Source: a virus. Taken from it: a DNA stretch of 64,000 nucleotides. The stretch is taken from positions 9,440-73,439 of the IMG/VR virus record IMGVR_UViG_3300042311_000920; one strand, written 5' to 3'. The notes under the pieces are model-generated. The model was not told the DNA's origin and searched no databases. It saw only the letters and a list, made by a program, of their open reading frames with translations. Below, one piece after another: positions 2,536 through 24,731 of the stretch; the stretch's first letter is position 1; every line of letters starts with the position of its first letter. The position numbers and the translations under genes are program-made.

Positions 2536-2991
2536 ATGAAAAAACTTTTTTTATTACTGTTATTGCCTACTTTGGCAATTTCTCAAAACGTTGGAATCGG
2601 AACGAAAAACCCAACGGCTAAACTAGAAGTTAATGGAAACGTAAAACTAAAAGCGTCAATAGGTACGGTAAACGATACTATTTTAGTTATTCGAAATGGC
2701 GAAATAATGAAAGTGCCTGCATCTTTTTATCAATACACACCGCCTACAAATTGCCCCTTACTCGTTACGGGTCAAGGTCAAAGTAATGGTTACTATTTGA
2801 AATTTCAATCAAACGTCCCAATTGTTAACCCAAGCGCTACACTCGTAATTCAGGGCAAAACTTTTCAAGCAGCGGGAACGTGGGTAAGTAGCAATACCTA
2901 CTTCTACTCTTACACTAATACGAGTGGTTCTCCTTTAAATATTAACCAGCCTTTTACCGTTAATTTTACGGGGCAAATTTGTCAGTATTAA
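2536..2991 (+). CDS. secreted protein with Bacteroidota-type VGIGTxxP motif
   Basis: Signal peptide MKKLFLLLLLPTLAIS then QNVGIGTKNPTAKLEVNG; its TAA stop forms the left boundary of array 1. Confidence 0.7.
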   Translation: MKKLFLLLLLPTLAISQNVGIGTKNPTAKLEVNGNVKLKASIGTVNDTILVIRNGEIMKVPASFYQYTPPTNCPLLVTGQGQSNGYYLKFQSNVPIVNPSATLVIQGKTFQAAGTWVSSNTYFYSYTNTSGSPLNINQPFTVNFTGQICQY

Positions 2992-3206
2992 CAGCAAAGT
3001 ATATAAGCAGTAGCGGAGTGAGTAGCACAGCACGTAAGAGGGAAGGCTGGAATTTCAAATGTGCATTGTCATTTCGGTATAACCAAGCCCCGCCCGCTAT
3101 TTCTTATATTTATTGTTATAAAATCCTTTTAATGTTTTACAACGTTTGGTGCTTTCTGTCTGTAGCGGATTTCAGCACCAAGCCATTAAAACACAAAACC
3201 AAAATT

Positions 3207-3434
3207 ATGGAATCACTTGAAAAATTTATAGAAAAAAGAATGCAACAATCGGAATTTTCAGCAATGATGATCCCTAGATATTTAGAAAAGCCAAATGCTT
3301 TTTTAGGTTCAAAAAATTACACTTTGGAAAAAGCGGCAGAATTTAAAGCAGATGCTGAGAAATGCAAAGCATTAATGATGTTTTTAAAAGAATATAATAA
3401 ACTTTTGAAAACCAAGCGTAACAATGGAAACTAA
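3207..3434 (+). CDS. hypothetical protein in degenerate cassette unit
   Basis: ATG 3207 (MESLEKF...); TAA overlaps the AAC of the next hairpin. Confidence 0.55.
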   Translation: MESLEKFIEKRMQQSEFSAMMIPRYLEKPNAFLGSKNYTLEKAAEFKADAEKCKALMMFLKEYNKLLKTKRNNGN

Positions 3435-3484
3435 CGTTGAATTATTGTCGTCAGGTGGCGACAAACACAAAACAAAATATAAAA

Positions 3485-3817
3485 ATGAAAGTAATGACAA
3501 AACATTCAGAGAATACCCAAACCGCCACTTGCGACAATAATTTGTTAGTAGATTATCATCCTTTTGACCTTAAGCCTCAACATAGAGATTTAGGAGGAAA
3601 AATACCTTTTGTTCATAATAAGACAGGTTTTACAGAATTGTATCCAAAAGCTTATAGTTATCCGGCCAAAAGATGCGAAAATTGCTTGTTTTATAGAGTA
3701 GAGAGAAGTACTACTCCTGTTGCTTACTATTGTCGAATTGGTATGTTTTCAAGTTATGTACAGGCAACCGCAAAAAGAGATGAAGACAAACCAACTGAAT
3801 GTCAGGTTTATTGGTAA
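3485..3817 (+). CDS. cassette hypothetical protein, Cys-rich C-terminus
   Basis: ATG in the loop of hairpin 3433-3546; reads through GTT at 3544. Confidence 0.6.
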   Translation: MKVMTKHSENTQTATCDNNLLVDYHPFDLKPQHRDLGGKIPFVHNKTGFTELYPKAYSYPAKRCENCLFYRVERSTTPVAYYCRIGMFSSYVQATAKRDEDKPTECQVYW

Positions 3818-3825
3818 TATCTACT

Positions 3826-3950
3826 AACGGATTGCGGTTTTGTCTTGTTGCCGAAAATACAAGACCAATTTTAATTTAAAAAACTATGAATACAAGTACA
3901 AAAAATTCATCAAATGAAGCCGAAAATGGCAATAAGTCAAAACCGCTGTT
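3826..3950. repeat. attC-like hairpin, close relative of 6085-6209
   Basis: Arms GCGGTTTTGTCTTGTTGCC / GGCAATAAGTCAAAACCGC; shares TTTGTCTTGTTGCCGAAAATACAAGACCAA with 6085-6209. Confidence 0.85.
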
Positions 3951-4119
3951 ATATGATGGCATTTTCGTAGGGCAGAAAGTTATTGATGAAGATTGCGATA
4001 AAGGAACGATAACAGAAATAGAAAATATCTACAATGTTTATGTAAAATATGATAATGGCGGAAGTGGTATTTCTTGTTTAAATGGTTGTTGCAACGACAG
4101 GTTGTATGCTATCATATAA
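3886..4119 (+). CDS. cassette hypothetical protein
   Basis: Starts in hairpin loop (…EAENGNKSKPLL); TAA lies in the terminal TAAC. Confidence 0.6.
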   Translation: MNTSTKNSSNEAENGNKSKPLLYDGIFVGQKVIDEDCDKGTITEIENIYNVYVKYDNGGSGISCLNGCCNDRLYAII

Positions 4120-4255
4120 CGTTTTCGGGCTTGGCGAAGTGCCGCTAACCGAAACTTAATTTTTAGCACTAACTGTCCTGCGGCATTTTGCCAAACCCGT
4201 GTTATGGGATAGTTTTAAAAACCTTTTAGGGTGGGCATTTAAAAACAAAATTAAA

Positions 4256-4651
4256 ATGGGAATGTACACAGAATTAATTTTTGGTGCTGAATTAAAAAAA
4301 GACACACCAAACCAAGTAATTGAAGCCTTGAAATATATGATAGGTGAAACAAAAGAAAAGCCAAGTGATTTCCCGTTACCTGATGGAAGATGTGAATGGT
4401 TATTTCAAGGCGGTAGCTATTACTTCGCTATCAATAATTCAGTAACAAAAATGTGGCTTGATGATATTGATAAGCAATGGCATATTAGCACACGTTCAAA
4501 TATTAAGAATTACGAAAGTGAAATTGAAACATTTTTAGACTGGATAAAGCCATACATTGACGGTGGTTCTGGTGGTAGAGATTTATATGCCATTACCATT
4601 TATGAAGAACAAGACACACCAACTCTTTATTATTTGCACGATGCTGATTAG
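4256..4651 (+). CDS. cassette hypothetical protein
   Basis: ATG 4256 inside cassette 4201-4691. Confidence 0.7.
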   Translation: MGMYTELIFGAELKKDTPNQVIEALKYMIGETKEKPSDFPLPDGRCEWLFQGGSYYFAINNSVTKMWLDDIDKQWHISTRSNIKNYESEIETFLDWIKPYIDGGSGGRDLYAITIYEEQDTPTLYYLHDAD

Positions 4652-4688
4652 TACGGTGCGGTGGGAAAAGGTTTTTAAAATTTCCCAT

Positions 4689-4754
4689 AACGTTTTGCAG
4701 ATACACGCTGTGAGCGTTGAATTGAGGGAGGGGAAATAGCGTGTATCTGCTGTT
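4689..4754. repeat. short attC-like hairpin
   Basis: AAC-GTTTT-GCAGATACACGCT...AGCGTGTATCTGC-T-GTT, perfect 13-bp arms. Confidence 0.85.
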
Positions 4755-4795
4755 ATGCCTTCGTTGCGGATTATTAACTTAAAAACTAAAATATA

Positions 4796-5122
4796 ATGGA
4801 TAAATTTCCAAAATTCATCATAGAAGATGATAAATTAATACTAATGAAAGTAACATATCATAAAGAGATTGCTACTGATTTAACTAAAGTAAAAGGCGGT
4901 GGTTGGTTTAAATATTTGCAACATACCGATATGTTTGTTTTTAGCGGAGAAAGCCACGATTTTGGCAAAGCTAAATTTGAAGATATAAAACAATGTGTTG
5001 CAAATTGCCAAGTATATTCAGATAACCGCCTTTACCGAAATATCAGTAATAATCACAATTTTGGATATGATACAGGAACAGAAATTATCGAATTGAAAAC
5101 GGAATGTAGCAATGAGGCATAA
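4796..5122 (+). CDS. cassette hypothetical protein
   Basis: Fills cassette 4752-5123. Confidence 0.7.
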   Translation: MDKFPKFIIEDDKLILMKVTYHKEIATDLTKVKGGGWFKYLQHTDMFVFSGESHDFGKAKFEDIKQCVANCQVYSDNRLYRNISNNHNFGYDTGTEIIELKTECSNEA

Positions 5123-5261
5123 CGTTTTGCAGCTATATGTCTGTTGCCAAAAGTAAAAAACAATGCTTCGATTAAGCACAAATAATCACAAGTACAAAAC
5201 AAATTATAAATCAAGCCGAATGTGGCAATAAGTCAAAACCGCTGTTATAAGTAGTACGGAT

Positions 5262-5402
5262 ATGAAAATCACAAAAGAATTTTTAGAAAAAATAAAAAAA
5301 GAAAACAATATATTGATATTTAAACTAGCGTCGATTGAGGGTAAAATACCAAAAGAAATACAAGACACATTACCTAAAGAAGTAATTACAAACAGATTGT
5401 AG
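5262..5402 (+). CDS. cassette small hypothetical protein (46 aa)
   Basis: MKITKEFLEK...NRL*, fills cassette 5244-5415; below ORF-track cutoff. Confidence 0.5.
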   Translation: MKITKEFLEKIKKENNILIFKLASIEGKIPKEIQDTLPKEVITNRL

Positions 5403-5557
5403 TATTACTTATAACGTTTTGCAGGTAGGCGATAGTGCCGCTTACCACAAACTTTAAATCAAAGCACTCAGGCTCATAGCGGCATTTTGCCTACCTGCTG
5501 TTAGGTGTCTGTAAAAAATAAATTTAGCGTGGGCTTAAACTTTAAATAACAAACAAA

Positions 5558-6043
5558 ATGGAATTACAAGAATTAATTGAAAAGAACAAACTGCAATTAC
5601 GCACACAAGAAGATATTTCTGCAAAGTTTGACGAATTGCAAAATTCAGGTGGCTTTATGGATTTTCGACCAGAAGTATTGATTAACTTTTTATCATTTGA
5701 AAACGCAAAGCCACATTTGAAAGAAGACTACGTGAAAGAAGTTGAAGCAGGAACAAAGCAATGGGAGCAACATACTACGGTTGAAAAGGCTGCCGAAGAG
5801 TTTTTGGACTATATGAAATTTGCTTGGGGTAAAGCCGAAGATGAACGTGGAATTTCAGCAAGCCGTTCAGTTCAAAAACTAGGAATGTGGCTTTGGATTA
5901 TGAACCGAGATGATTTGCGTAGAGTTATTGAGGATGATGATTTGTACAATCCTTATGGCGCACCTGCTTTAATTGAAGTTTGCAATCAAATGGGTATAAA
6001 AGTTCCAAACTCATTAATCGAATTTGCTAAGATAAAATGCTAA
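5558..6043 (+). CDS. cassette hypothetical protein
   Basis: 161-aa ORF in cassette 5500-6087. Confidence 0.75.
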   Translation: MELQELIEKNKLQLRTQEDISAKFDELQNSGGFMDFRPEVLINFLSFENAKPHLKEDYVKEVEAGTKQWEQHTTVEKAAEEFLDYMKFAWGKAEDERGISASRSVQKLGMWLWIMNRDDLRRVIEDDDLYNPYGAPALIEVCNQMGIKVPNSLIEFAKIKC

Positions 6044-6084
6044 TTATGTTGGGTGCGGTGGGAAATTTATTTTTTATTGCACCT

Positions 6085-6209
6085 AACATTCTCGTGGCTT
6101 TGTCTTGTTGCCGAAAATACAAGACCAACTTTAAATTTATCACTATGAAAAATGACACAAAACCAGCATTACCCGAAGCCGAAAACGGCAATAAGTCAAA
6201 ACCACTGTT
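6085..6209. repeat. attC-like hairpin, close relative of 3826-3950
   Basis: Arms GTGGCTTTGTCTTGTTGCC / GGCAATAAGTCAAAACCAC. Confidence 0.85.
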
Positions 6210-6582
6210 ACAAGCAGTGTTTTTCGCTCCTTATTTGCCTTATTCGGTAAAAATAGCTTATGATTATTTTGGAGATACACAAGAAATAGCAACATTAATA
6301 GGTGTTGAAGATAGAAATGGAGAAACTAGATTGCAAATTAATACTGGCGGAAGTGCTTTGTTAAAATATTGCAAACTTGTTTTAAAACCTTTTTCAGATT
6401 ATACTGAAATATTAGAAATAACAGATGAAATGAATGATTATGAAATCCAAATGATTGAAGATAATCCTGATTTAATAAAACGACTACCTTATGATGTGGT
6501 TGAAAAAATGTTTAAAAATCACATTGATGTTTTCGGACTTATTAATTTCGGTTTAGCCGTTTCAATTCACGATGTTGTGTAA
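6145..6582 (+). CDS. cassette hypothetical protein
   Basis: ATG 6145 in hairpin loop; N-terminus …EAENGNKSKPLL as in 3886. Confidence 0.65.
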   Translation: MKNDTKPALPEAENGNKSKPLLQAVFFAPYLPYSVKIAYDYFGDTQEIATLIGVEDRNGETRLQINTGGSALLKYCKLVLKPFSDYTEILEITDEMNDYEIQMIEDNPDLIKRLPYDVVEKMFKNHIDVFGLINFGLAVSIHDVV

Positions 6583-6735
6583 CATTGCTTGTAACGTTCC
6601 GCAACTACACGTCTGTTGCGTAAAAGTACAAAATTACCTTTCAGTTTAACACGGAATTGAAAGGTACAAAAACATCACTAAATTAATCACAAATCTAGCA
6701 ATAGCGTGTAATTGCTGTTATCAAATCGGTTTATT

Positions 6736-7062
6736 ATGAAAAGATTACCTGTTATACACGATGTAAAAGTTTGGAGTAGATTTTGGCAAAATCTAACTAT
6801 CGAAGAAAAAAACTTTGAATTAAGAAAATTAGATAGAGATTATCAAGTAAATGATTATTTACGATTGAATTTCTATTCAGAAGATTTAAAAGAAATTATA
6901 GAAACTGAAAAGCCTAAAATTGCTAAAATTCAATACATTTTAAAAGATGCTGAAATGTTTGGATTGCAAAAAGATTACGGAATATTATCCTTAAAATATT
7001 ATAGTTCTTTTTCTTTTCAAGAAAGGGTAGAGTTTTTGAAAACGCAAACCCAAACTGTTTGA
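6736..7062 (+). CDS. ASCH/PUA-like DUF3850 protein (cassette)
   Basis: HDVK...KNFELRKLDRDYQVNDYLRL matches the DUF3850/ASCH pattern. Confidence 0.7.
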   Translation: MKRLPVIHDVKVWSRFWQNLTIEEKNFELRKLDRDYQVNDYLRLNFYSEDLKEIIETEKPKIAKIQYILKDAEMFGLQKDYGILSLKYYSSFSFQERVEFLKTQTQTV

Positions 7063-7134
7063 TAACGGCTACGCATATACGCAGTAGCGGATTTAAAACA
7101 CAAAAGTTTAATTAACAAATAAAAGTAAAATAGA

Positions 7135-7476
7135 ATGAAAAAGTTTAAAATTAGCACAGTAGCCGCTATTGCCGTATATGCGATGTTAGCGGTTGTTTTT
7201 ACTTCTTGTGATGATGCAGGGGTAACTTCAAAAAGATTAAATGGCGATGAACAAAATTTGCCTGATGAACTGAAAGGACTAAAAATTTATTCAGTTTCGA
7301 CAGGTAATGGGAATTATGTAAAAGTTGCCGTTTTAGACGGTAAGATAAACTCAACAACTTACCAAGTAGGTAAAGTTCAAGAATCGACAGTAATAGTAAA
7401 TAAACAAAACGGCAAACTTATAGAGGTTAGCCAAATTTTGGTTGAAAACGACAGCGTGATTGTCTGCCGAAAATAA
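7135..7476 (+). CDS. putative lipoprotein (cassette)
   Basis: MKK + hydrophobic stretch + lipobox FTSC. Confidence 0.7.
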   Translation: MKKFKISTVAAIAVYAMLAVVFTSCDDAGVTSKRLNGDEQNLPDELKGLKIYSVSTGNGNYVKVAVLDGKINSTTYQVGKVQESTVIVNKQNGKLIEVSQILVENDSVIVCRK

Positions 7477-7548
7477 CCGCTAACGGTTCTCGGCTTTGTC
7501 GTCGTTGCGACTTATGAAAACTAATATTAATATTTTAAACTAAACGAA

Positions 7549-7833
7549 ATGAAAAACGATAATTCAACTAAACAAAGCAATGCGTCAAAACCGATGTTAG
7601 CGGAAGGCTGGATTTCTGTTAACGATAGAAGACCAAATGAAAATCAAACAGTATGGTGTTATTCAGAAAACACATTTAACATATTTGTAGGAGTTTATAT
7701 TTACCTTACAAATGAAGGTTGGTTTTGGGCTTCAAGTAACGGTTGCTTTTATATTGAAGAGGGAAAAATAATAACAGAATGTGAGATTGATGATTTTGAT
7801 GTTACACATTGGTTTCCCGCTCCAGTTCTGTAG
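7549..7833 (+). CDS. DUF551-like protein (cassette)
   Basis: WISVNDRRP...VTHWFPAP signature. Confidence 0.75.
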   Translation: MKNDNSTKQSNASKPMLAEGWISVNDRRPNENQTVWCYSENTFNIFVGVYIYLTNEGWFWASSNGCFYIEEGKIITECEIDDFDVTHWFPAPVL

Positions 7834-8060
7834 CTTTCCGCTAACGTTTCTCGGCTTTGCTTTGTTGCGGAAAAGTAAGCCAAAACTTTAGATTTAAAAA
7901 CAAAATTAACAAATACAAACCAAACATTCAGTTAAGCCTAAAACCGCAATAGAGCAAAACCGATGTTATAAGTAGCTTTTATTATGGATGAAATAATTTT
8001 ATGTTTAGGAATGATTGTTGGATTAATATTATTTATAATTAGTATAAAACAAGAGTAAAA

Positions 8061-8333
8061 ATGGAAAGTAAAATAGAATATTTTAATAGATACAGTGATA
8101 CGCATTTGCCTGATAAAATGAATAGATGGGCAAGAATAGCTGTATTTAAAAACATTAGAATTGCTTGGATAAGTAAACATAAGATTAAAGAGCAAGATAC
8201 ATTTTGTGTAACGTGCCATTTTCCAACTATGCAAAATGATACAGCAAACGAAAGTAAAGTTTTCTTTAGTTTAGAAGATGCAAAAGATTTTGTTTCTGAA
8301 AGATGGAATTTTTTTTTAACCGCAGTTTCTTAA
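8061..8333 (+). CDS. cassette hypothetical protein
   Basis: In cassette 7965-8346, preceded by a 24-aa hydrophobic mini-ORF at 7984-8058. Confidence 0.65.
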   Translation: MESKIEYFNRYSDTHLPDKMNRWARIAVFKNIRIAWISKHKIKEQDTFCVTCHFPTMQNDTANESKVFFSLEDAKDFVSERWNFFLTAVS

Positions 8334-8464
8334 AGTTACTTATAACGTTCCCACGATAGGGGCTGTTTGCCTATTTACAAAGTTGCTTTCGGCAAATAGC
8401 ACTTATCGTGTGTTGTGCGATGGTGCTTTTAAATACAAATATTAACCAATTAAATTACAATAAA

Positions 8465-8680
8465 ATGTCAAAACGAAAATACTCAAAAATGTCGGACAAA
8501 GTTGAAATAACACATTATGAATGTACTAATAGAAAGTGCAAGTGGCAAGGAACTAATAAACAAAAAGGAACTCAATATTTAGATAATGGATTTACGGAAT
8601 TGATTTGCCCTAAATGCTGTAATAATGAATTTTACGGATTACTTCCGTCTTATGTAGATTCTATTTCTGCGGTTTCGTAG
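8465..8680 (+). CDS. small Zn-ribbon-like protein (cassette)
   Basis: CTNRKC...CPKC; ATG 8465. Confidence 0.6.
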   Translation: MSKRKYSKMSDKVEITHYECTNRKCKWQGTNKQKGTQYLDNGFTELICPKCCNNEFYGLLPSYVDSISAVS

Positions 8681-8846
8681 CATCTCGCACAACGTATCGG
8701 TGCTATACGATGTGGCGGATTTTCGGCAGAAAGCCCAATACGAAGCACCACAGTTGAATTAAATAAAAATGTTTAATCGAAGCACGTCAGCCGCCATATT
8801 GTATAGCACTTGTTAGCGGATGCCGTTTCTTCACAACAATTTTAAA

Positions 8847-9083
8847 ATGGAATATAAAGCACAAGAACTCAAAAAAGATTTAATAACAAAGCGTTGCATT
8901 GATAACGATATGACAATGGATGAAGCCTGTAAAGAAATAGGAATTTCAAAAGCCACTTTGTCAAGGTTGGAAAAGTCTAAACTGCCAGATGTTGAAACAT
9001 TAGGTAAGGTTTGCACTTGGTTAGGAACTGAACCAAATAAATACTTTGTCATTATTCGTAAGCGTCAAGACGGTTTCCGCTAA
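8847..9083 (+). CDS. XRE-family HTH regulator (cassette)
   Basis: MTMDEACKEIGISKATLSRLEKSKLPDVETL. Confidence 0.85.
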   Translation: MEYKAQELKKDLITKRCIDNDMTMDEACKEIGISKATLSRLEKSKLPDVETLGKVCTWLGTEPNKYFVIIRKRQDGFR

Positions 9084-9255
9084 CCGTTCGGGGCTTGTAG
9101 CAGTAGGGGATTAGAAGCACTACTGTTCAACCTACCACAAAAGCTGATTAGAAGTACACAGCTTAATTAAAGCACTTCTGCCCCTATTGCTACAAACCCT
9201 TGTTAGCAGAAGTGGCGGTTAATTTACAAGGGTGTCAATTTTAAAACGTAAAAAA

Positions 9256-9558
9256 ATGATTAAAAATTCAGAACAACCAATCAGTCCAATGCCTTACCAA
9301 AATCAAGATGGCTCTATTCAACACGATGTTTATTTTGGATTAACTAAAAGAGAACATATTGCTATTGAAGCAATGAAGGGCTTTTTAGCAAACCCATCTG
9401 AAACAGAAGTAAGTTCAACTTATGTATTGGAAGCAATCGGGTTGCCAAAAGAAACTAAGTATTCATTTGATGAGCATTACACAAAGTATGTTTCACAAAT
9501 AGCAGTCAAATATGCCGATGCCTTATTAAAGGAATTGTCAATCGGAGACGGTCGGTAG
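9256..9558 (+). CDS. phage hypothetical protein with GLTKRE motif (cassette)
   Basis: GLTKREHIAIEAMKG...AVKYADALLKEL pattern common in phage small proteins. Confidence 0.7.
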   Translation: MIKNSEQPISPMPYQNQDGSIQHDVYFGLTKREHIAIEAMKGFLANPSETEVSSTYVLEAIGLPKETKYSFDEHYTKYVSQIAVKYADALLKELSIGDGR

Positions 9559-9628
9559 CCATTTCTGCTAACGGCTACGGCTATGTGCAGTAGCGGATTT
9601 AAAACACTAAACTTTAAATATAGAACGA

Positions 9629-10420
9629 ATGATGATAGTAGAACAAATTTTGAATAACGCACCGAACCCGCTATTGCATATAGCCGATGTTAGTGGCGGT
9701 GCTTTGTTCAATGCTGATTGTATGGATATTTTACCTCTTATTCCTAATAAATCGGTTCAACTTATTTTGGCTGATTTGCCTTACGGAACAACAAGTTGTG
9801 CGTGGGATTGTATTATTCCATTTGACAAACTTTGGGCTGAATATGGTAGAATAATAAAAGACAATGGTGCAATAGTTTTAACGGCTTCACAACCATTTAC
9901 AAGTGCCTTAGTAAACAGTAAAATTGAATGGTTTAAATATGCTTTAGTTTGGGAAAAAGAAAGACCAAGCAACCCTGCACACGCAAAGATTAGATTTATG
10001 AAATGGCACGAAGATATTTTGATTTTTTCACCTAATAAAGAAAAGTTTAATCCACAAAAAGAAAAACGATTAGAGCAAAATAAAAGGAATAACAAACAAG
10101 GTGTATTTCATAAATCTGATGCTTATGGAGAACAAACAATACCACAAGGCGATGGGATGGCTGATGAAAAGTATTTGAGTAGCATATTAAAGGTAAATGT
10201 TGAAAGAGGGTTGCACCCAACGCAAAAGCCGTTAAAACTATTTAAAACATTGATTAGTGCCTTTACGGATGAAAATGATTATGTACTTGATAATACAATG
10301 GGAGTAGGCACAACTTGTTTAGGAGCAAAAGAGTTGAACCGTTCCTTTATTGGAATTGAAAAAGAGGTAAAATATTATGATTTGGCAGTTGGTCGGGTGT
10401 TCGGTCAGCATTGCCACTAA
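9629..10420 (+). CDS. N6-adenine/N4-cytosine DNA methyltransferase, beta class (cassette)
   Basis: DLPY catalytic motif, HPTQKP, VLDNTMGVGTT SAM motif. Confidence 0.92.
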   Translation: MMIVEQILNNAPNPLLHIADVSGGALFNADCMDILPLIPNKSVQLILADLPYGTTSCAWDCIIPFDKLWAEYGRIIKDNGAIVLTASQPFTSALVNSKIEWFKYALVWEKERPSNPAHAKIRFMKWHEDILIFSPNKEKFNPQKEKRLEQNKRNNKQGVFHKSDAYGEQTIPQGDGMADEKYLSSILKVNVERGLHPTQKPLKLFKTLISAFTDENDYVLDNTMGVGTTCLGAKELNRSFIGIEKEVKYYDLAVGRVFGQHCH

Positions 10421-10574
10421 CGGTTTCGGGCTTGGCGAAGGTGGGCTTGTAGGATGCTCAATTTTAGCAGAATGTTTCTGCCCACTTTTGCCAAACCCGT
10501 GTTATGTGTAGTTGCGGTTGTTTATCAGGAACTTAAATTGAAAACGAATAAAAAAGAATTAGAAAAAAGAAGCG

Positions 10575-11276
10575 ATGGAATTAAATAAAATATATAACGA
10601 AGATTGCATTGAAGGTATGAAGAAAATACCATCTGCGAGTATTGATATGGTTCTAACTGACCCACCATATACATCTCCAACTGTTCACGCATTCGGAAGG
10701 CAAAAAGTAAACCGATTATCAGATTTAGCAATACAAGAATTTTACTTTGCTGAAATCAAAAAGGAATGGGAACGAATACTGAAACCCAATGCACCTGTTT
10801 TGATTTTCTGCGATGATATTTATAGTGCTGTTTTGATGGGTTTGTTTTACGAATGGCAACAAAAGAATTTAGTTATTTGGGATAAGGGTAGAATTGGAAT
10901 GGGAAACCCGTTTAGAAAACAGCACGAACTTGTATTTTATGCAAACAGAGGAAGTATTGAATTGAATAAAACCAATATGAGCCACATTCCTACTGTAATA
11001 AAAGAAACGCTAACAAAAGAACATCACGGAGCAGAAAAGCCAGTAAAACTATTGATGAAACTGATTGACGGACTTACAAAAGAAAATGCAACAGTTTTGG
11101 ATTGCTTTATGGGAAGTGGCTCAACTGCGATTGCTTGTTTAGAAACGAAAAGAAACTATATCGGTTTTGAACTTGATAAAAGCTATTATGAAACTTCACA
11201 AAATCGTATTTCTTCCTTGTGCGGTGGGCTTTTTTCTAATTCTTTTTCAACGGAAAGTTCAATTGAAACGGGATGA
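10575..11276 (+). CDS. N6/N4 DNA methyltransferase, beta class (cassette)
   Basis: TDPPY, HGAEKP, VLDCFMGSGST. Confidence 0.92.
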   Translation: MELNKIYNEDCIEGMKKIPSASIDMVLTDPPYTSPTVHAFGRQKVNRLSDLAIQEFYFAEIKKEWERILKPNAPVLIFCDDIYSAVLMGLFYEWQQKNLVIWDKGRIGMGNPFRKQHELVFYANRGSIELNKTNMSHIPTVIKETLTKEHHGAEKPVKLLMKLIDGLTKENATVLDCFMGSGSTAIACLETKRNYIGFELDKSYYETSQNRISSLCGGLFSNSFSTESSIETG

Positions 11277-11290
11277 TAGCAATTACACAT

Positions 11291-11337
11291 AACGTTTTGC
11301 AGATTGGCGGTCGTTTTAATGCCGCCAATGTGCTGTT
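11291..11337. repeat. minimal attC-like hairpin (47 bp)
   Basis: AAC-GTTTT-GCAGATTGGCGG...CCGCCAATGTGC-T-GTT. Confidence 0.8.
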
Positions 11338-11400
11338 ACAGGTAGTAGGGATTTCTACCACAAAACTTAATTAGAAGTACAAACAAAAAAGAATTTAAAA

Positions 11401-12276
11401 ATGAGCGAGGGCAAAAAAAGAAAAATTAAAGTATTATCATTATTCGATGGTATGAGTTGCGGACAAATAGCTTTAAACAAGCAAGGGATTGAATATGATG
11501 AATATTTTGCTTCTGAAATTGACAAAGAAGCTATAAAGGTAACTATGAAAAACTACCCAAACACAAAACAATTAGGTAGTATTACGGAACTAAAAGGAAT
11601 TGATTTGCCAAAAATAGATTTGCTATTTGGCGGAAGCCCTTGTCAAAGTTTTAGTAGAGCAGGAGATAACAGTGGATTTGACGGAAGTAGTAAATTGTTT
11701 TGGGAATTTGTAAGAGTTTTGAATGAAGTAGAACCTACTTACTTTTTACTTGAAAATGTAATTATGAAAAAAGAATGGGAAGATGTAATTACGGAAGCGT
11801 TAGGAGTGAAACCTATTGAGATTACAAGTGCTAAATTTGTACCACAAGCAAGACGAAGATTATATTGGACTAATATACCCAATGTAACGCAACCGAAACA
11901 ATCTGAATACACTGTTTTAGACTTTATTGATGGTGATGGGTTTCCGACAAGTTGCGGAATTGATAGAGTTTTTAAACGCAAAGAAATATTTAATACTTTG
12001 ACGGCAACTTATTGGAAAGGAATTAGAGGAAGTTCAAGACCAGCAGTAAGTATTAGAGAAGGATTTTTAGATGCGGACAGAGAAGCACACCGTATGCTAA
12101 CACCAACAGAATGTGAACGACTACAAACAGTACCTATTGGATATACGGATTGTGTTGCTAAAACAAATAGATATAAGATGCTTGGTAATGGTTGGACAGT
12201 TGATGTGATTGCTCATATTTTTTCTTTTTTAAAGGAGGGGAAATTTTTAAATTCTTTTTCTGACGAAAATGTTTAA
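11401..12276 (+). CDS. C5-cytosine DNA methyltransferase (cassette)
   Basis: LSLFDG, GGSPCQ, LLENV, QARRRLYW, RMLTPTECERLQ, LGNGW. Confidence 0.93.
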   Translation: MSEGKKRKIKVLSLFDGMSCGQIALNKQGIEYDEYFASEIDKEAIKVTMKNYPNTKQLGSITELKGIDLPKIDLLFGGSPCQSFSRAGDNSGFDGSSKLFWEFVRVLNEVEPTYFLLENVIMKKEWEDVITEALGVKPIEITSAKFVPQARRRLYWTNIPNVTQPKQSEYTVLDFIDGDGFPTSCGIDRVFKRKEIFNTLTATYWKGIRGSSRPAVSIREGFLDADREAHRMLTPTECERLQTVPIGYTDCVAKTNRYKMLGNGWTVDVIAHIFSFLKEGKFLNSFSDENV

Positions 12277-12377
12277 TCAAAGCACTTCACCGCTATTACC
12301 TGTAACGGTTCTCGGCTTGGCGAAGTTGCCGAACACAAAACTTCATTAGAATTACAAATGTTTAAATCAAAGATAGA

Positions 12378-13022
12378 ATGTCAAACGAAGCACAAAACGG
12401 CAATTTTGCCAAACCGATGTTAGCACCAGTACGGGTTTTAAATCTATACGCTGGAATTGGAGGAAACCGAAAACATTGGGAAAATGTAGAAGTAACTGCA
12501 ATAGAATACAACGAAGAAATTGCAAATGTTTACAAGAAATTACATCCAAACGATAATGTGATAGTTACTGATGCACACGATTATTTGGCTAAAAATTGGA
12601 GAGAGTTTGATTTTATATGGAGTTCGCCACCATGTCAAAGTCATAGCAAAGTAAGAATGATGGCAAGTAAAAGCGGAAGTTATGATGCTGTAATGCCTGA
12701 TATGAAATTGTGGAGTGAAATAATTTTTTTACAGAACTTTACTAAAAACACAGATATAAAGTTTGTAGTTGAAAATGTAAAGCCTTATTACGAACCATTT
12801 GTAAAACCAACTGCAAAACTTGGTAGGCATTTATTTTGGGCAAACTTTGAAATACCTGAAGCCGAAATAAAAGATGGATTAACCCACAATGAAAGAGGAA
12901 GTTCTGAAAAAGGTTATTTTGACTTACGAGAATATAAAATAAAACACAGAAAAGACCAAATAATTCGTAATTGCGTTGACCCAAATGTAGGACAATATGT
13001 TCTCGGTTGTGCAGTTTCGTAG
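12378..13022 (+). CDS. short C5-methyltransferase-like protein (cassette)
   Basis: LYAGIGG, SPPCQ, ENV; no obvious TRD or motifs IX-X. Confidence 0.85.
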   Translation: MSNEAQNGNFAKPMLAPVRVLNLYAGIGGNRKHWENVEVTAIEYNEEIANVYKKLHPNDNVIVTDAHDYLAKNWREFDFIWSSPPCQSHSKVRMMASKSGSYDAVMPDMKLWSEIIFLQNFTKNTDIKFVVENVKPYYEPFVKPTAKLGRHLFWANFEIPEAEIKDGLTHNERGSSEKGYFDLREYKIKHRKDQIIRNCVDPNVGQYVLGCAVS

Positions 13023-13066
13023 TATTGGTGCTAACTAATCGCTAATCGCTATAAAACCAAATCAAA

Positions 13067-13291
13067 ATGAATACAATATCAGTAAGTTATGATTTGAAAT
13101 GGCAAATAAAAAGTAATGAAAAATACAAGTGGACAACTTGCAAGAAACTTTTCAACACTCAAACAGGTCGCCAAATAAAAAAGACAATGAATTGCAGAAG
13201 TATTGGCTACTGGATAGGAAAACAATTTGTCACTTTGGAAAATTTAAAAAATCAACTAGAATTAATCCCAAAAGAAAATACACCTTTTTAA
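13067..13291 (+). CDS. array-terminal small hypothetical protein
   Basis: 74 aa ending ELIPKENTPF*. Confidence 0.65.
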   Translation: MNTISVSYDLKWQIKSNEKYKWTTCKKLFNTQTGRQIKKTMNCRSIGYWIGKQFVTLENLKNQLELIPKENTPF

Positions 13292-13292
13292 A

Positions 13293-13751: not shown

Positions 13752-13766
13752 AATAAACTAAAAAAA

Positions 13767-22007: not shown

Positions 22008-22187
22008 ATGACAACTTACGGACAAATAGTTGACGGTAAAAGAATAACACTAAATGACTTTGAAAAACAAGTTCGAGAAGGCGTTTCTGGCATCGTAACT
22101 AACCTAACATCAGCGGAAATAGCCAAACGTTACCGTAAAGGCGAATCCGTGGATAATGCAGTGAGTTATTTTATAATGCACAAGTAA
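22008..22187 (+). CDS. small hypothetical protein (59 aa)
   Basis: MTTYGQIVDG...MHK*; its TAA forms the left boundary of array 2. Confidence 0.55.
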   Translation: MTTYGQIVDGKRITLNDFEKQVREGVSGIVTNLTSAEIAKRYRKGESVDNAVSYFIMHK

Positions 22188-22265
22188 CGTCCTGTGGCTT
22201 TGTCTAGTGGCGTTGAATTAAGACTAGACACAACAAAAATACACTAATTATTAAATTTAAAAATT

Positions 22266-22586
22266 ATGATTTCAGATAACACCCAATCCAAGCCATTAAA
22301 CAAAACGACTGTTAGCGGTTCGGTTACTGACAATATGACCTTTAAAGACGCTTTAAAGTCATTAGGAATAGAAGATTATGCTGAACGGATTTTTAATAGT
22401 AATTCACACGGAGAATTATTTCATATTCAACAGTATTTTACTTTAGCAAAGGTTCTAAAAGGAAATTCAGAGTGGTTTAGAGAATGGTTTGAAAAAGTTG
22501 TGAAATGGGCAGAAGAAAATTGGGAACGACCAGAATCAATTTTCCAACACATTAGTCAAATTTTAGTAGATAGTCGTTCTAACTGA
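22266..22586 (+). CDS. cassette hypothetical protein
   Basis: ATG in hairpin loop; an internal ATG is also possible. Confidence 0.65.
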   Translation: MISDNTQSKPLNKTTVSGSVTDNMTFKDALKSLGIEDYAERIFNSNSHGELFHIQQYFTLAKVLKGNSEWFREWFEKVVKWAEENWERPESIFQHISQILVDSRSN

Positions 22587-22874
22587 CGGCTAACTGATTT
22601 ACCTGATTACAACGGGAAAAGAGCTTTTGGATTAGGTTCGGTAGACGAAATTTGGATTATAGATGATTTTGAATATTGTACGGAATATCCTGATTTACCG
22701 ATGCGATAACATTACCACTAACGTTTTGCAACTTGCATTAGTGCCTTGCAAACAAGCGAGTAGTTTCGGATTAAGACTAAACACAACAAAGAAAAACAAA
22801 ATATAAATTAATAACCAAGCCAAAGGCATTGATGCAAATTGCTGTTATCACTTCGGCTTTTTATTCCAAAAAAT

Positions 22875-23117
22875 ATGACAACAGATGAAATGCTTATCGA
22901 AATTGTAAATTACAATTACAAATCCGCTGGTTTTCCTTATGTATTTTTAGACTACTCACAATCTTTTAAATATTGGGCAATTACTTGGCGAAATCCAGTT
23001 GATTTTTCAAATGAAAAACAAACTAATGCACCAACTCCAAATGAGGCGTGTAAAAAAGCACTCGAATTTATAAAAAGCAATCCGAGTATTTTTAGCCGTT
23101 CCAACCAAGCTGAGTGA
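22875..23117 (+). CDS. cassette hypothetical protein
   Basis: ATG 22875 within cassette 22844-23121. Confidence 0.65.
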   Translation: MTTDEMLIEIVNYNYKSAGFPYVFLDYSQSFKYWAITWRNPVDFSNEKQTNAPTPNEACKKALEFIKSNPSIFSRSNQAE

Positions 23118-23278
23118 TAACGTTTCCACGCTTGGCGAAGGTGGCGATTTTAACCACAAATACTGATGCGTAGAACGAAATTTGAATATAGCAATAATTG
23201 TCAAGCGGAGTACTGCACCGCCACTTTTGCCAAACGTGTGTTATGCGTTCGGCTTTTTTGGAACTTAAAAATTTGATT

Positions 23279-23668
23279 ATGAAAGAAAGTATTATTAGAT
23301 GTCCAATTTGCAGTAAGATTACAGCGTTGGAAAAAAATGGACGAACTCAAAAAATAGAGCAAGTTCACGGAATTTGTTGGGATAAAATTGGCTATTCGAT
23401 TGGTGGGTGGGGAAGCCGAAGAGATTTTATTCACGGATTTTCTGGCGAAGTTTGTAATGATTGTTTCACAGCTTTAAAAACAAAAATCAATGAATTTAAA
23501 GAAGTTGTTAACCAAAGAACAAACTCCTGCGAAGAAGGGGTATGTATTTACAAAACATCAAAAGACAAATCAACAGGGGATAACCTGTCTGACCTGCAAC
23601 AAGACGAGTTACAATCCAAACGACATAAAACACCTTTATTGCGGTTGCTGTCATCGTTTTCACGATAG
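23279..23668 (+). CDS. cassette Zn-finger-like protein
   Basis: CPIC...CNDC; ATG 23279. Confidence 0.55.
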   Translation: MKESIIRCPICSKITALEKNGRTQKIEQVHGICWDKIGYSIGGWGSRRDFIHGFSGEVCNDCFTALKTKINEFKEVVNQRTNSCEEGVCIYKTSKDKSTGDNLSDLQQDELQSKRHKTPLLRLLSSFSR

Positions 23669-23681
23669 CGTTGTAAGCTGA
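23490..23681 (+). CDS. overlapping small Zn-finger protein
   Basis: CLTC-NKTSYNPND-IKHLYCGCCH; stop falls in the cassette end. Confidence 0.5.
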   Translation: MNLKKLLTKEQTPAKKGYVFTKHQKTNQQGITCLTCNKTSYNPNDIKHLYCGCCHRFHDSVVS

Positions 23682-23748
23682 CGCATAACGTTTCGCGGCT
23701 ACACGAGGTTTGGGACTAAATTAGCAATAATTTTTAAATTTAATACAA

Positions 23749-24582
23749 ATGATAGAGATACAAAACCAACTTGAAATTAAGCCTGAAACGGCAATAGCAC
23801 AAAACCGATGTTACCAGCAGTGTTTTTTGTCGGACAATTTGGATTTAATGAAAACAATAGAAAGCAATACCATTGATTTGATTTACTGCGATATTCTTTA
23901 CGGAACTGGCAGAAACTTTAGCGACTACCAAGACTTAAAACCGATTAGAAGTGAAATTGAAGCACATTATTTACCACGATTAAAAGAAATGTATCGAATA
24001 CTAAAACCAACAGGGAGTATTTATTTACAAATGGATACAAGAATAAACCATTGGATGCGAATTTTAATGGATGATATTTTTGGCTATGATAGAATGTTGA
24101 ATGAAATTGTAGTTTGTATTAGTAAAGGAAATCAAACAAACAAACACTTTGCAAAAAGGCACGATATTTTACTTTATTACACAAAAACAAAAGAATGGAT
24201 TTATAATTTAGATGCTGTTTCAAAAGAAAATCCTGAACATAAAAGGTATAAATACCAAGATGAAAAAGGAATGTATAGATGGCATATTGAAAGCATCAAA
24301 GATTATAAAATGTATCTTAAAAAACAAAATATAAACGATGTTTGGAGTGATGTAGGAATTGTTCAAGGCAACTCAATAGAAAATACAGGTTATTCTACAC
24401 AAAAACCAAAATCATTGATTGAACGAATTATAAAAGCAAGTAGTAACGAAGGAGATTTAGTTGCTGATTTCTATGCTGGAAGTTTTACAACAGCAGTGGT
24501 TTGTAAAGAACTAAATAGGAATTTTATCGGATGCGATATTAATCCTTTGGCTTTGGAGATTTCAAAACAACGATTGGCTTAA
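23749..24582 (+). CDS. N6/N4 DNA methyltransferase, beta class (cassette)
   Basis: DLIYCDILY (variant DPPY), YSTQKP, VADFYAGSFTT. Confidence 0.88.
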   Translation: MIEIQNQLEIKPETAIAQNRCYQQCFLSDNLDLMKTIESNTIDLIYCDILYGTGRNFSDYQDLKPIRSEIEAHYLPRLKEMYRILKPTGSIYLQMDTRINHWMRILMDDIFGYDRMLNEIVVCISKGNQTNKHFAKRHDILLYYTKTKEWIYNLDAVSKENPEHKRYKYQDEKGMYRWHIESIKDYKMYLKKQNINDVWSDVGIVQGNSIENTGYSTQKPKSLIERIIKASSNEGDLVADFYAGSFTTAVVCKELNRNFIGCDINPLALEISKQRLA

Positions 24583-24731
24583 CATTGCTGGTAACGTTTG
24601 TGGCTTTGCTTAGTGGCTGAAAAGCAAGCCTAAATTATTGAATTAAAAACAAATTTTACAAACACAAAACAGTGTTGAAATTTTGCCCGAAACAGCCATT
24701 GAGCAAAACCACTGTTATAAACAGGCTTTTT

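Follow-up and report, generated by a model that had tools for sequence, protein, structure and literature searches.

A long-standing question in integron biology is how ordinary genes turn into mobile cassettes. The locus analyzed here raises it for the gene of a C5 cytosine DNA methyltransferase, which lies in a stretch of 64,000 nucleotides (the window; positions 9,440 to 73,439 of the IMG/VR virus record IMGVR_UViG_3300042311_000920) of a 73-kb phage genome. From the resemblance of the gene's flanks to parts of a hairpin, the original prediction held that the gene had been captured inside a hairpin-loop shell and that new cassettes may arise by insertion of DNA into a site-derived stem-loop. 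We ask what this shell consists of, how it is related to the hairpins, and whether the shell and the gene share one history.

Hairpin arrays and the pairing of cassette ends

A search with the covariance model R1 (cmsearch, filters off) identified 24 plus-strand matches at E<0.01 in the window, all of them co-oriented TAAC...GTTA hairpins that lie between single genes in two arrays (Table 1); read on the minus strand, the same sites score at most 24 bits. The last cassette of array 1 closes at the TAAC at 13033-13036, with no hairpin beyond it. The family has invariant TAAC and GTTA ends, stems of 4 bp and 10-15 bp, an asymmetric spacer and loops of 10-90 nt, with 15-17 of 23 pairs covarying. 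Compensatory changes were seen in 15 of the 23 pairs among 12 hairpin copies, and in an alignment of 127 distinct copies, which had been fitted to the R1 model, 93.2% of the cells were paired vs 67.4% after shuffling, with 644 vs 180 double-sided changes. Beyond the window, R1 has 355 matches in 76 viral loci and 122 matches in 30 bacterial loci, mostly Flavobacterium.

In 116 cassettes from 28 of the 76 viral loci, a biased sample since the loci were fetched with exact patterns from the window, every gene is closed by a GTTA...TAAC stem of about 15 bp. When the 18 nt from the GTTA of one hairpin were compared with the 18 nt up to the TAAC of the next, 12.3 positions on average formed Watson-Crick pairs, vs 8.1 for the two flanks of one hairpin (n=143) and 8.3 +/- 1.8 for random pairs. 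The pairing ends after position 15, and position 11 is G.T in 80, C.T in 23 and T.T in seven of the 116 cassettes. Such a universal stem is what recombination of the cassettes at conserved tetranucleotides, of the kind known from integrons, would be expected to leave. It would form the first layer of the shell, a stem of 15-16 bp present in every cassette of the family, and may represent the variable R arm of the recombination site in its folded form, with one half at each end of the linear cassette; the R arm would join the TAAC...GTTA core when the cassette is circular or its plus strand single-stranded.

Homology between genomes breaks at the same tetranucleotides. Between the window and locus L081 it begins between the G and the TTAC of GTTAC (11335) and stops directly after GTAAC (12306). 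Among 261 HSPs, 93 of 194 start at position 0 or -1 of TAAC; 91 of 193 run at least 7 nt beyond the 3' end of a core and 29 of 194 start at least 7 nt upstream of it, so that a core shares its inheritance three times as often with the flank downstream of it as with the one upstream. Breakpoints are thus present on both sides of the hairpin cores, at TAAC and at GTTA, which does not fit a single crossover point of the integron type. Contigs from other metagenome runs, which are short and break at repeats, diverge from the window at 11289, 11338, 12303 and 13035; uncovered stretches, a weak joint (10504 to 13059, side 23), joints inside hairpin loops and small-share runs were left out of this evidence. 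An all-against-all BLAST of 29 sequences gave 15 large HSPs and no near-identical pair of arrays differing by one cassette.

These breakpoints map the crossovers at or beside the conserved TAAC and GTTA. The enzyme responsible is most likely a compact, Xer-like tyrosine recombinase that acts in trans. We infer the chemistry of recombination, the strand that folds and an enzyme acting in trans, because the genome holds no such recombinase and neither a circular cassette nor an excision junction was seen. The sole PF00589 match in the 73-kb genome, the gene at 14033-15331, is probably the lysogeny integrase; it was set aside as cassette recombinase since it is of the arm-binding type and lies beside HTH repressor-like genes, unlike the compact enzyme of other arrays. 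No relatives of this integrase were found in viral contigs, hence there are no near relatives of the phage for a comparison of synteny. Six of the 46 records that underlie array loci contain a compact tyrosine recombinase (267-301 aa), in four of them within 2 kb beyond the array 3' end, and homologues lie 0.7-2.2 kb past the array 3' end in four of 26 bacterial loci. The compact enzyme scores higher on XerA/XerC/XerD models than on the integron-integrase model TIGR02249, to which its match reaches 138.7 bits, below the cut-off of 265, and is split into two stretches.

Anatomy of the shell and its likeness to hairpin loops

The flanks and the inner repeat of the C5-methyltransferase cassette lie where the original prediction had placed them, and an outer stem brackets the gene as well (Table 1). 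Of the 16 positions of the outer stem, 14 are Watson-Crick pairs, one is G.T and one G.G, and the TAAC of its 3' arm doubles as the first four bases of the next hairpin. The inner repeat is 17 nt long and 100% complementary. Comparison with relatives lacking the shell limits the cargo proper to approximately 11413-12233, so that about the first nine and the last 17 residues of the methyltransferase are extensions encoded by the shell. The two shell ends pair with each other (DNA MFE -25.5 kcal/mol, z = -7.3; closures of the two neighboring methyltransferase cassettes, -31.8 and -27.4 kcal/mol), whereas each half folded alone yields no structure (z = -0.4 and +0.2), which places the structure of the shell between its halves. 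A core with the same loop as the one leading this cassette precedes the same shell in L081, L216 and L218, and the stem sequence common to these three differs from that of the window.

Table 1. Positions of the cassette arrays, hairpins, shell elements and genes discussed in the text (numbering of the window).
Feature	Position	Strand	Remarks
Cassette array 1	2989..13036	+	19 TAAC...GTTA hairpins, one gene after each; R1 search
Hairpin with trailer motif in loop	8690..8815	+	AAATGTTTAATCGAAGCAC; R1 search and sequence comparison; same arrangement in L213
Compared hairpin	9081..9205	+	R1 95.8 bits; L stem and loop homologous to outer stem, leader and trailer of the C5 shell
Neighboring N6_N4 methyltransferase cassette	10501..11293	+	Three-tier closure as in the C5 cassette
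Short hairpin core leading the C5 cassette	11290..11338	+	Loop TCGTTTTAATG; R1 28.6 bits, E 1.9e-4
Outer stem, 5' arm (R' arm)	11335..11350	+	GTTA and variable extension, GTTACAGGTAGTAGGG; pairs with 12291-12306
Shell leader	11351..11385	+	Holds motif common to loops of hairpins 9081 and 12303
Inner inverted repeat, left arm	11386..11402	+	Overlaps first two bases of start codon 11401-11403; compensated variant in L008
C5 cytosine DNA methyltransferase, 291 aa	11401..12276	+	PF00145 6.9e-40; phrog_116
Inner inverted repeat, right arm	12243..12259	+	Within ORF; encodes part of tail KFLNSFS
Shell trailer	12260..12290	+	Last codons, stop codon 12274-12276, motif TTAATCAAAGCACTTCA
Outer stem, 3' arm (R'' arm)	12291..12306	+	Extension and TAAC, CGCTATTACCTGTAAC; pairs with 11335-11350
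Next hairpin core	12303..12422	+	R1 108.3 bits; leads C5-like methyltransferase 12378-13022
Tyrosine recombinase, about 432 aa	14033..15331	+	Arm-binding Bacteroidota integrase type; Pfam; no NCBIfam family
Cassette array 2	22185..24718	+	5 hairpins of the same family, then N6_N4 and C5-like methyltransferase genes

The predicted likeness of the flanks to hairpin 9081-9205 holds against shuffled controls. The left flank (11355-11381) agrees with the loop segment 9132-9158 at 24 of 27 positions, which was reached by none of 5000 dinucleotide shuffles of the hairpin; its local-alignment score is 39 (shuffles: mean 14.5, sd 2.5, maximum 28; none of 2000 as high). The right flank (12272-12297) agrees with 9163-9188 at 23 of 26 positions with one gap and scores 30 (shuffle mean 13.9; one of 2000 as high); aligned without the gap it matches at 18 of 27 positions only, a value reached in 11 of 5000 shuffles. 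Left and right matches run colinearly and correspond to consecutive parts of the hairpin. In a natural control, the flanks of those 22 of the 24 window hairpins for which both TAAC and GTTA were located were compared with every hairpin core in the window; those of the C5 cassette scored highest (40 and 30), the other flanks 17-30 and 15-25. Chance similarity was ruled out by the shuffles. The likeness extends to other hairpins: the motif of the left flank matches the loop of the next hairpin nearly equally (12330-12356, 23 of 27), the trailer motif is also present in the loop of hairpin 8690-8815, and the loop of hairpin 12303-12422, with ..TTAGAATTACAA directly followed by ATGTTTAAATCAAAG.., resembles the C5 shell minus its cargo.

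Inner repeats occur in other cassettes as well. Repeats of at least 12 nt were found in seven of 96 cassettes vs 0.28% of 1758 controls, and repeats of at least 14 nt in none of the 1758 pairs of these cross-cassette controls, which keep the composition. Their distance to the cassette ends is fixed (left, +22 to +38; right, 31-39), and one of them lies entirely in coding DNA (9726-9743 / 10358-10375). The tiers of the neighboring N6_N4 cassette are an outer stem, a palindromic middle motif and a perfect inner repeat of 19 nt (10551-10569 / 11229-11247).

Cargo exchange and the origin of the cassette

The shell recurs in other phages at 89-96% identity around three different methyltransferase families. 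Its left 68 nt, leader included, are identical at 64-65 positions in L081, L215, L216 and L218, and the right shell of L216 and L218 is identical to that of the window at 60 of 64 nt. The cargo of L216 and L218 is a 223-aa phrog_757 methyltransferase, of which the last 12 aa alone align to the window protein (10 of 12 identical), while L081 and L215 hold in the same shell a C5 cargo 49-51% identical to that of the window. L008 has the best shell-borne cargo (62%) in a more divergent shell (50 of 68 and 48 of 64) with a compensated inner repeat, and in L211 and L217 a variant shell surrounds an N6_N4 methyltransferase. The closest relatives of the cargo, in L003-L007 (76-82% at the amino acid level), lack leader, repeat, tail and stems, and align to the window over 11413-12233 only. 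The conservation of the shell around differing cargoes, together with the existence of shell-less relatives of the cargo, indicates that ORFs are exchanged inside a pre-formed cassette chassis. As judged from these alignments, the shell is older and more conserved than its pairing with the C5 gene. Alternatively, the tail common to these proteins may have a function of its own as a peptide and not just follow from the structure of the nucleic acid. In L081, L008, L216 and L212 the shell cassette stands at the array end, with no core following.

We therefore consider it probable (about 0.65) that this Flavobacterium-type phage carries an integron-like array lacking its own recombinase, in which the C5 gene is one cassette's replaceable cargo, its ORF having been swapped within the chassis of a two-layer shell. 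The second layer, inside the universal stem, would be a methyltransferase-specific chassis of leader, perfect inner inverted repeat and trailer, which also contributes a few residues at the N-terminus of the protein and about 14 aa of tail at its C-terminus, and may zip together the ends of a long (0.7-1 kb) cassette. This chassis is kept across phages while the ORF between the arms of the inner repeat is replaced, which suggests that such new cassettes arise by placing an ORF into an existing mobile chassis. Hairpins 9081, 12303 and 8690, with leader or trailer motifs in their loops, would be cargo-free relatives of the chassis, and either could derive from the other. An empty GTTA...TAAC shell of the C5 type was not found among the eight loci fetched with the trailer pattern, and the stage predicted by either direction is thus missing.

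These natural variants, in which core, terminal stem, leader, inner repeat, tail and trailer are kept and three methyltransferase families occupy the chassis, suggest how a ready-made mobile cassette takes up a new gene. The junctions (about 11413 and 12233) are defined and, like the structural elements, open to mutation tests. The same variants show phages of Flavobacteriia trading anti-restriction methyltransferases as units.

A stronger version, which we put forward tentatively, is that the shell is a dedicated capture chassis. The cargo would form the loop of the inner-repeat stem in the folded single strand, and template switching or recombination at the stem base would swap in any ORF, in frame with the shell-encoded tail and mobile at once; the long hairpins with leader and trailer loops would then be empty or spent chassis. 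If true, this would offer a concrete, testable route by which gene cassettes are born de novo in Bacteroidota and their phages, within a system that resembles integrons.

Literal capture, in which a site hairpin such as 9081 or 12303 took the gene into its loop to become a new cassette and the shell is the split site, appears unlikely. It would account for the matches of leader and trailer to hairpin loops and for the shell-less cargo relatives; the loop of 12303 corresponds to the shell with 11384-12268 deleted, the 27-nt trailer stands right before the 3' stem arm in L213 and hairpin 8690 as it does in shells, and the stem arms are placed alike relative to ATTT... and ...GCACTTCACC in both contexts. 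However, the shell has R-type ends (GTTA/TAAC), as have all 116 cassettes, whereas its gene-less look-alikes sit on the loop-closing L-type stems (CTTG/CAAA) nested in complete hairpins. The TAAC-spacer-CGGG base of a split hairpin is missing, and complete, different hairpins abut both ends. The 3' loop motif occurs in only nine of 141 cores and is thus not a general feature of the sites; one shell with three cargo families implies that most events were replacements within an existing cassette; and the reverse direction, in which the loops are remnants of cassettes after loss of cargo, fits the same data. What stands of the original prediction is a gene inside a hairpin-like shell, kept around other methyltransferases and homologous on its inside to the loops of intergenic hairpins. 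The outer stem, as an instance of the universal end-pairing, is not the trace of one capture, and no gene-split hairpin that keeps its own TAAC-spacer-CGGG base was found to illustrate the birth of a cassette by insertion into a site hairpin.

It is rather improbable that the structures act at the RNA level only, the hairpins being RNase III-like processing sites or coupling elements of an early polycistronic mRNA and the gene-enclosing stems closing the mRNA 5' to 3' or gating translation, with no DNA recombination. The arrays adjoin Xer-like recombinases in phages and bacteria, large chromosomal arrays exist, and homology between genomes breaks exactly at TAAC and GTTA. Almost invariant G.U pairs (123 of 127 and 121 of 127) and RNA two-strand MFE values of -40 to -54 kcal/mol would suit an RNA, but position 11 of the end stem is kept non-Watson-Crick, including C.T and T.T, with no stabilization of RNA. 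Similarly, the left inner-repeat arm spans the ribosome-binding region and the start codon in two of the three methyltransferase cassettes, yet one inner repeat is coding at both ends and is tied to the cassette ends, not to the start codon. A role in mRNA would also fit the orientation of the 24 hairpins, all of which run with the genes and are confined to the plus-strand gene arm, with none in the minus-strand structural arm, and the embedded codons: the TAA of TAAC is often a stop codon, and start codons lie in loops. A search of Rfam with positions 1-32000 gave one chance snoRNA-like match at E<=1 and no family for the hairpins. Qi et al. (2023, PMC9892861) report recombination by IntI1, on single-stranded DNA, of a hairpin site from the related Polaribacter phage P12002L that may or may not belong to the present family.

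A transposon-like unit, with a passenger gene between terminal inverted repeats and a transposase in trans, would explain the 16-position terminal and second inner repeats around a single gene but is highly improbable, since there is no target-site duplication at 11334/12307 or in L081, the terminal repeats vary between cassettes and match within one cassette only, and neither a Y1 transposase (PF01797) in the 73-kb genome nor any transposase family in a Pfam scan of the 54 plus-strand ORFs was found.

Relation to integrons and other exchange systems

The arrays share with integrons single-gene units of one orientation parted by imperfect hairpins, and these have the R''-L''...L'-R' architecture of attC sites, with conserved AAC...GTT ends, two stem boxes, an unpaired spacer, a variable loop and structure kept over sequence. 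The variable portion of the R box has its match at the far end of its own cassette and not in the opposite arm of its own hairpin, which is the classical mark of circular cassette intermediates. Unlike in integrons, where attC lies 3' of the ORF and the crossover falls between G and TT of R' on the bottom strand, the hairpin stands before its gene, cores go with the downstream flank, the gene start often lies in the loop, arrays end in TAAC with no core, strand asymmetry favors the sense strand, and breakpoints are seen at both TAAC and GTTA. The R arm has 15 bp with a fixed non-Watson-Crick position, vs 7 bp in integrons. The enzyme of related arrays, where present, is compact and Xer-like, lies at the array 3' end, lacks the IntI-specific insertion and scores below the TIGR02249 cut-off; the present phage has only the arm-type integrase. 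With a hairpin that leads the gene and no IntI, the cassettes of this array are not classical integron cassettes. To our knowledge, nothing in integrons corresponds to the conserved inner chassis that surrounds the cargo. A full-text literature search found no description of an integron-like system with a Xer-like enzyme in place of IntI, to which our analysis adds anatomy.

The PeSLs (promoter early stem-loops) of T4-type phages combine an early sigma-70 promoter with a terminator stem-loop and work by homologous recombination. In their modules, as outlined in parts of PMC2839356 and PMC4122927, short conserved stem-loop flanks also bracket accessory genes of the early region and whole genes are exchanged; the present flanks are instead variable stems, complementary to each other and ending in conserved tetranucleotides, and some arrays adjoin a tyrosine recombinase. 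The group IIC-attC intron model, as presented in a section of PMC3001079, likewise asks how an ORF and a recombination site come together and invokes an intron and reverse transcription, whereas no intron or reverse transcriptase was found among the 54 scanned ORFs and the ORF is set between the arms of an existing chassis. IS200/IS605 elements and REP/RAYT, which are marked by a Y1 HUH transposase and short subterminal hairpins, differ in that PF01797 is absent from the genome and the hairpins, of 50-130 nt, occur once per gene.

By structure and layout the arrays fit CALINs, attC clusters without an integrase, whose formal definition is at least two attC calls by IntegronFinder/HattCI models with no intI nearby. 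According to passages of Qi et al. (2023, PMC9892861), phage CALINs also carry methyltransferase cargo. Polaribacter phage P12002S holds hairpins of the present family (R1 68.5, 53.7, 51.3 and 33 bits), and P12002L has weak R1 matches (27.8-21.1 bits) between methyltransferase genes.

Shell and exchanged cargo of the C5 methyltransferase

The C5 methyltransferase gene within the unit 11335..12306 occupies a conserved, reusable methyltransferase chassis whose cargo is swapped. This shell consists of a leader, an inner repeat, an encoded tail and a trailer, enclosed by an outer stem of 14 Watson-Crick pairs, one G.T and one G.G; the ORF inside is the cargo. The original prediction that the gene's flanks resemble consecutive parts of hairpin 9081-9205 was borne out against shuffled controls. 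The left flank (11355-11381) is identical to 9132-9158 at 24/27 positions, equalled by none of 5000 dinucleotide shuffles, and its local score of 39 was reached in 0/2000 shuffles (mean 14.5 +/- 2.5, maximum 28). The right flank matches 9163-9188 at 23/26 positions with one gap (score 30, equalled in 1/2000 shuffles) and ungapped at 18/27 (equalled in 11/5000). In a natural control comprising the 22 of 24 window hairpins with both TAAC and GTTA located, the flanks of the C5 cassette were the most like hairpin cores. The inverted repeat predicted to bracket the gene is likewise present and perfect over 17 nt.

Coordinates of features in the window, unless another locus is named
Feature	Coordinates	Strand	Remark
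Outer stem of C5 shell	11335-11350 / 12291-12306		GTTA arm / TAAC arm
Leader	11351-11385
Inner repeat	11386-11402 / 12243-12259
Trailer	12260-12290
N6_N4 DNA methyltransferase genes	9629-10420, 10575-11276, 23749-24582	+
C5 or C5-like DNA methyltransferase genes	11401-12276, 12378-13022, 24672-25346	+
Tyrosine integrase gene	14033-15331	+	432 aa
Two HNH endonuclease genes			in plus-strand arm
Hairpin 3' arms read as N-termini	3886-3960, 6143-6218, 12378-12420
Short trailer-motif ORFs	8769-8816, 12365-12424		also L213, around 1597-1645

Eight viral loci matched a 19-letter trailer pattern and were compared together with L081 and L008 (L-numbers denote fetched viral or bacterial loci).

Shell matches to the window and cargo in other viral loci
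Locus	Left shell	Right shell	Cargo
L216, L218	64-65/68	60/64	223-aa phrog_757 methyltransferase, without Pfam match
L081	64/68	57/64	C5 methyltransferase, 51% identical to window's
L215	65/68	60/64	C5 methyltransferase, 49% identical to window's
L008	50/68	48/64	C5 methyltransferase, 62% identical
L211, L217	51/68	52/64	N6_N4 methyltransferase

The inner repeat of L008 is altered in both arms (AAAAAATTATTAAAAAT / ATTTTTAATAATTTTT), and the phrog_757 cargo aligns with the window enzyme in its last 12 residues alone (GGFLNSFSNENV vs GKFLNSFSDENV, 10/12). On inspection, the five closest relatives of the window cargo (L003-L007, 76-82% amino acid identity) lacked the leader, the repeat, the tail and the TAAC/GTTA stems, and they gave no hairpins at E<=0.01 with R1, the covariance model of the hairpin family; their proteins start with MNVLSLFDG and end a few residues past ...AHIF, and the part of the window to which their DNA aligns is confined to about 11413-12233. 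Since one shell holds unlike cargos and the nearest cargo relatives are shell-less, the histories of shell and cargo differ. On the same grounds, no fewer than two of the three cargo families must have been latecomers to a shell already in place. The window cargo seems to have been substituted from the pool of shell-less genes, the joins lying at motifs conserved at both termini of methyltransferases; the shell itself encodes about 9 residues at the N-terminus of the enzyme and about 17 at its C-terminus.

In four loci (L004, L006, L007 and L059), 3' of the match, shell-less relatives of the C5 methyltransferase are lined up as two to four tandem paralogues whose stop and start codons overlap and which have no hairpins. 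L081 (LR745206.1, 588290-595317) comes from a record of 634,780 bp that bears the label uncultured phage and has the same type of cassette array, where a Dam-like methyltransferase (2234-2959) is enclosed by an outer stem of its own and by an inner repeat that is perfect over 19 nt.

Hairpins 9081 and 12303 carry the leader motif in their loops; the trailer motif is present in these two loops, in those of 8690 and 5412, and in L213. These motifs adjoin the L stem exactly as the shell motifs adjoin the outer stem, and the 12303 loop reads ...TTAGAATTACAA followed directly by ATGTTTAAATCAAAG..., i.e. the C5 shell minus 11384-12268. Three observations speak against a simple insertion of a gene into a loop: the L stems have CTTG/CAAA ends and are nested in complete hairpins; the 3' motif occurs in only 9/141 cores, and both motifs lie inside the flanks in only one of 96 cassettes (the C5 one); and no split core was found, nor an empty shell among the eight loci with the trailer pattern. 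The stems of shells and loops are alike because R and L arms follow a common plan: they begin TT(A/G) and have, at a set distance, a position that is not Watson-Crick. To derive loops from shells, or shells from loops, would be conjectural. A full-text literature search found no description of a conserved cargo chassis, which does not in itself prove absence.

Hairpin family and pairing of cassette ends

Hairpin 9081-9205 belongs to a family of which 12 long copies were aligned; RNAalifold gave 23 pairs, 15 with compensatory changes, and the TAAC and GTTA ends and one G.U pair are invariant. Among 127 distinct copies, in an alignment that was fitted to the model and hence favours structure, 93.2% of cells were paired vs 67.4% after shuffling, and double-sided changes numbered 644 vs 180. 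At E<0.01 R1 identified 24 plus-strand sites in the window, 19 in 2989-12423 and five in 22185-24718, and a single minus-strand match, the reverse of one of them; reverse reads score at most 24 bits and forward ones up to 122. Each window hairpin has a gene on either side. The preceding gene often takes its stop codon from the TAA of TAAC, and the loop often holds the start of the next ORF.

An Rfam search of 1-32000 yielded no match to the family. R1 gave 355 matches in 76 viral loci, fetched by a 3'-arm pattern and in part overlapping, and 122 matches in 30 bacterial loci, mostly Flavobacterium, where single stretches of 15-16 kb hold 18-19 hairpins; matches are also present in Polaribacter phage P12002S and, weakly, in P12002L. 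The arrays of L243 (Flavobacterium wongokense contig, 1-15461) and L267 (a Bacteroidota chromosome), with 19 and 18 matches at E<=1e-4, continue off the fetched 15-16 kb and are very large bacterial chromosomal arrays. In several long hairpins the 3' arm is translated as the N-terminus of the next protein, with similar peptides, e.g. EAENGNKSKPLL in two; these residues may have a function or be a mere by-product of the stem. In three hairpins a short ORF of 15-21 codons runs from the ATG of the trailer motif (ATGTTTAAT...) to the TAG of the closing TGTTAG, with MFNRSTS...C in two of the three.

To assess end-pairing in cassettes (one gene plus the hairpin core leading it), 18 nt from the GTTA of one hairpin were compared with the 18 nt ending at the TAAC of the next, for 152 hairpins (128 from 28 viral loci and the window's 24). 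End-pairing is universal: the 116 cassettes have on average 12.3 Watson-Crick positions, most commonly 14-15, vs 8.1 for the flanks of one and the same hairpin (n=143), which is no better than random pairs (8.3 +/- 1.8). It spans positions 1-15 and ceases beyond, and position 11 hardly ever forms a Watson-Crick pair (G.T in 80/116, C.T in 23/116, T.T in 7/116, G-C in 2/116). Because it is found across these cassettes, the outer stem round the C5 gene is a family rule and not the trace of a single event. The idea of gene capture in a hairpin shell is partly borne out by the reusable chassis with exchanged cargo; the outer stem is ordinary for the family.

At 13023-13036 the final cassette of array 1 closes with a matching ...GTATTGGTGCTAAC, after which no hairpin comes, and the arrays of L081, L008, L216 and L212 likewise terminate without a following hairpin. 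In integrons the variable stretch of R' is likewise part of the following cassette, whose own R'' it matches, a textbook sign of circular cassette intermediates. We infer such intermediates, and the active (folded) strand, for this family as well. In L156 a gene-less mini hairpin (4094-4122; GTTATAGCA-TCGTTTTAATG-TGCTATAAC) with GTTA...TAAC ends and the loop of short cores lies between two cores and may be an emptied cassette.

Searching 110 nt inward from each arm of the outer stem gave perfect repeats of at least 12 nt between the cassette ends in 7/96 cassettes vs 0.28% of 1758 cross-cassette controls; six of these seven cassettes are 700-1000 nt long. The arms lie at fixed distances, +22 to +38 nt past the outer stem and 31-39 nt ahead of its other arm, and since both arms of cassette 9692-10418 are within coding DNA, this geometry is tied to the cassette ends and not to the start codon. 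The paired ends of the C5 shell have a DNA MFE of -25.5 kcal/mol (z = -7.3), and each half folded alone gave no structure; two adjacent methyltransferase cassettes reach -31.8 and -27.4, with three pairing tiers each. The inner repeat would zip together the ends of long cassettes.

Breakpoints and candidate recombinases

Homology between the window and L081 extends from between G and TTAC (11335) to just past GTAAC (12306). The short hairpin preceding the shared unit of L081 has the same loop as the window's and a different but compensated stem, and 3' of the unit nothing is alike. Among 261 HSPs from 29 sequences, 93/194 hairpin-near starts fall at 0 or -1 of TAAC, and 91/193 ends lie at least 7 nt past the core vs 29/194 starts at least 7 nt upstream of it, so that cores more often move together with the gene that follows. 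Contigs of other runs depart from the window at 11289, 11338, 12303 and 13035, evidence that is weak taken alone because the contigs are short. Breakpoints are located at both TAAC and GTTA, whereas integron crossover takes place at a single point between G and TT.

The sole tyrosine recombinase in the window's genome is the arm-type integrase, and a Y1 transposase was not found there. Seven of the 46 records behind array loci have a PF00589 match, in six of them to a compact enzyme of 267-301 aa, which in L087, L111, L088 and L103 lies 0.65-2 kb past the array 3' end on the same strand. The L087 protein scores best with XerA (183.8 bits, below the cut-off of 220), followed by XerC and XerD, and matches the integron-integrase model in two split stretches (138.7 bits vs a cut-off of 265). 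Bacterial homologues lie 0.7-2.2 kb past the array 3' end in 4/26 loci (L248, L253, L270, L290), many of the others stopping short of their array's end. The layout mirrors that of an integron: the hairpin leads, the gene is next and the enzyme is at the far end. The window's phage would rely on a trans-acting recombinase from its host or another phage.

Qi et al. 2023 (PMC9892861) found CALINs (attC clusters without an integrase) in 17 phages. One of these is Polaribacter phage P12002L, whose CALIN has two methyltransferase genes and where IntI1 recombines one of two tested sites as single-stranded DNA; the recombined site may or may not be among the R1 matches. The PeSL modules of T4-type phages, in which genes are shuffled between conserved flanks, are a functional analogue (PMC2839356, PMC4122927), and the group IIC-attC intron model is a standing proposal for how cassettes form (PMC3001079). 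No account of a Xer-linked hairpin-cassette system in Bacteroidota turned up in a full-text literature search, which again does not prove absence.

Genome context

The virus record (73,439 bp, rated 100% complete) ends with the window, its last 64 kb, which has 34% G+C. Its relatives at the DNA and protein levels are phages of Flavobacterium, Cellulophaga and Polaribacter, and the sequencing runs containing this stretch are described as lake-water metagenomes. Small plus-strand genes, including six DNA methyltransferase genes and HTH regulators, fill the arm 1-32000, and large minus-strand structural genes fill 32098-64000.

Starting 3' of the integrase gene, 1.3 kb (15589-16927) lack ORFs of at least 70 aa, are AT-rich (about 24-32% G+C) and contain overlapping palindromes at 16517-16562 and 16854-16912; this is a candidate attachment, origin or control region. 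Two neighbouring NUMOD4-HNH-AP2 homing-endonuclease-like genes (25807-27122) lie directly past array 2. The minus-strand structural arm is headed by an ORF of 2497 aa (32098-39591) and also holds one of 1682 aa (42977-48025).
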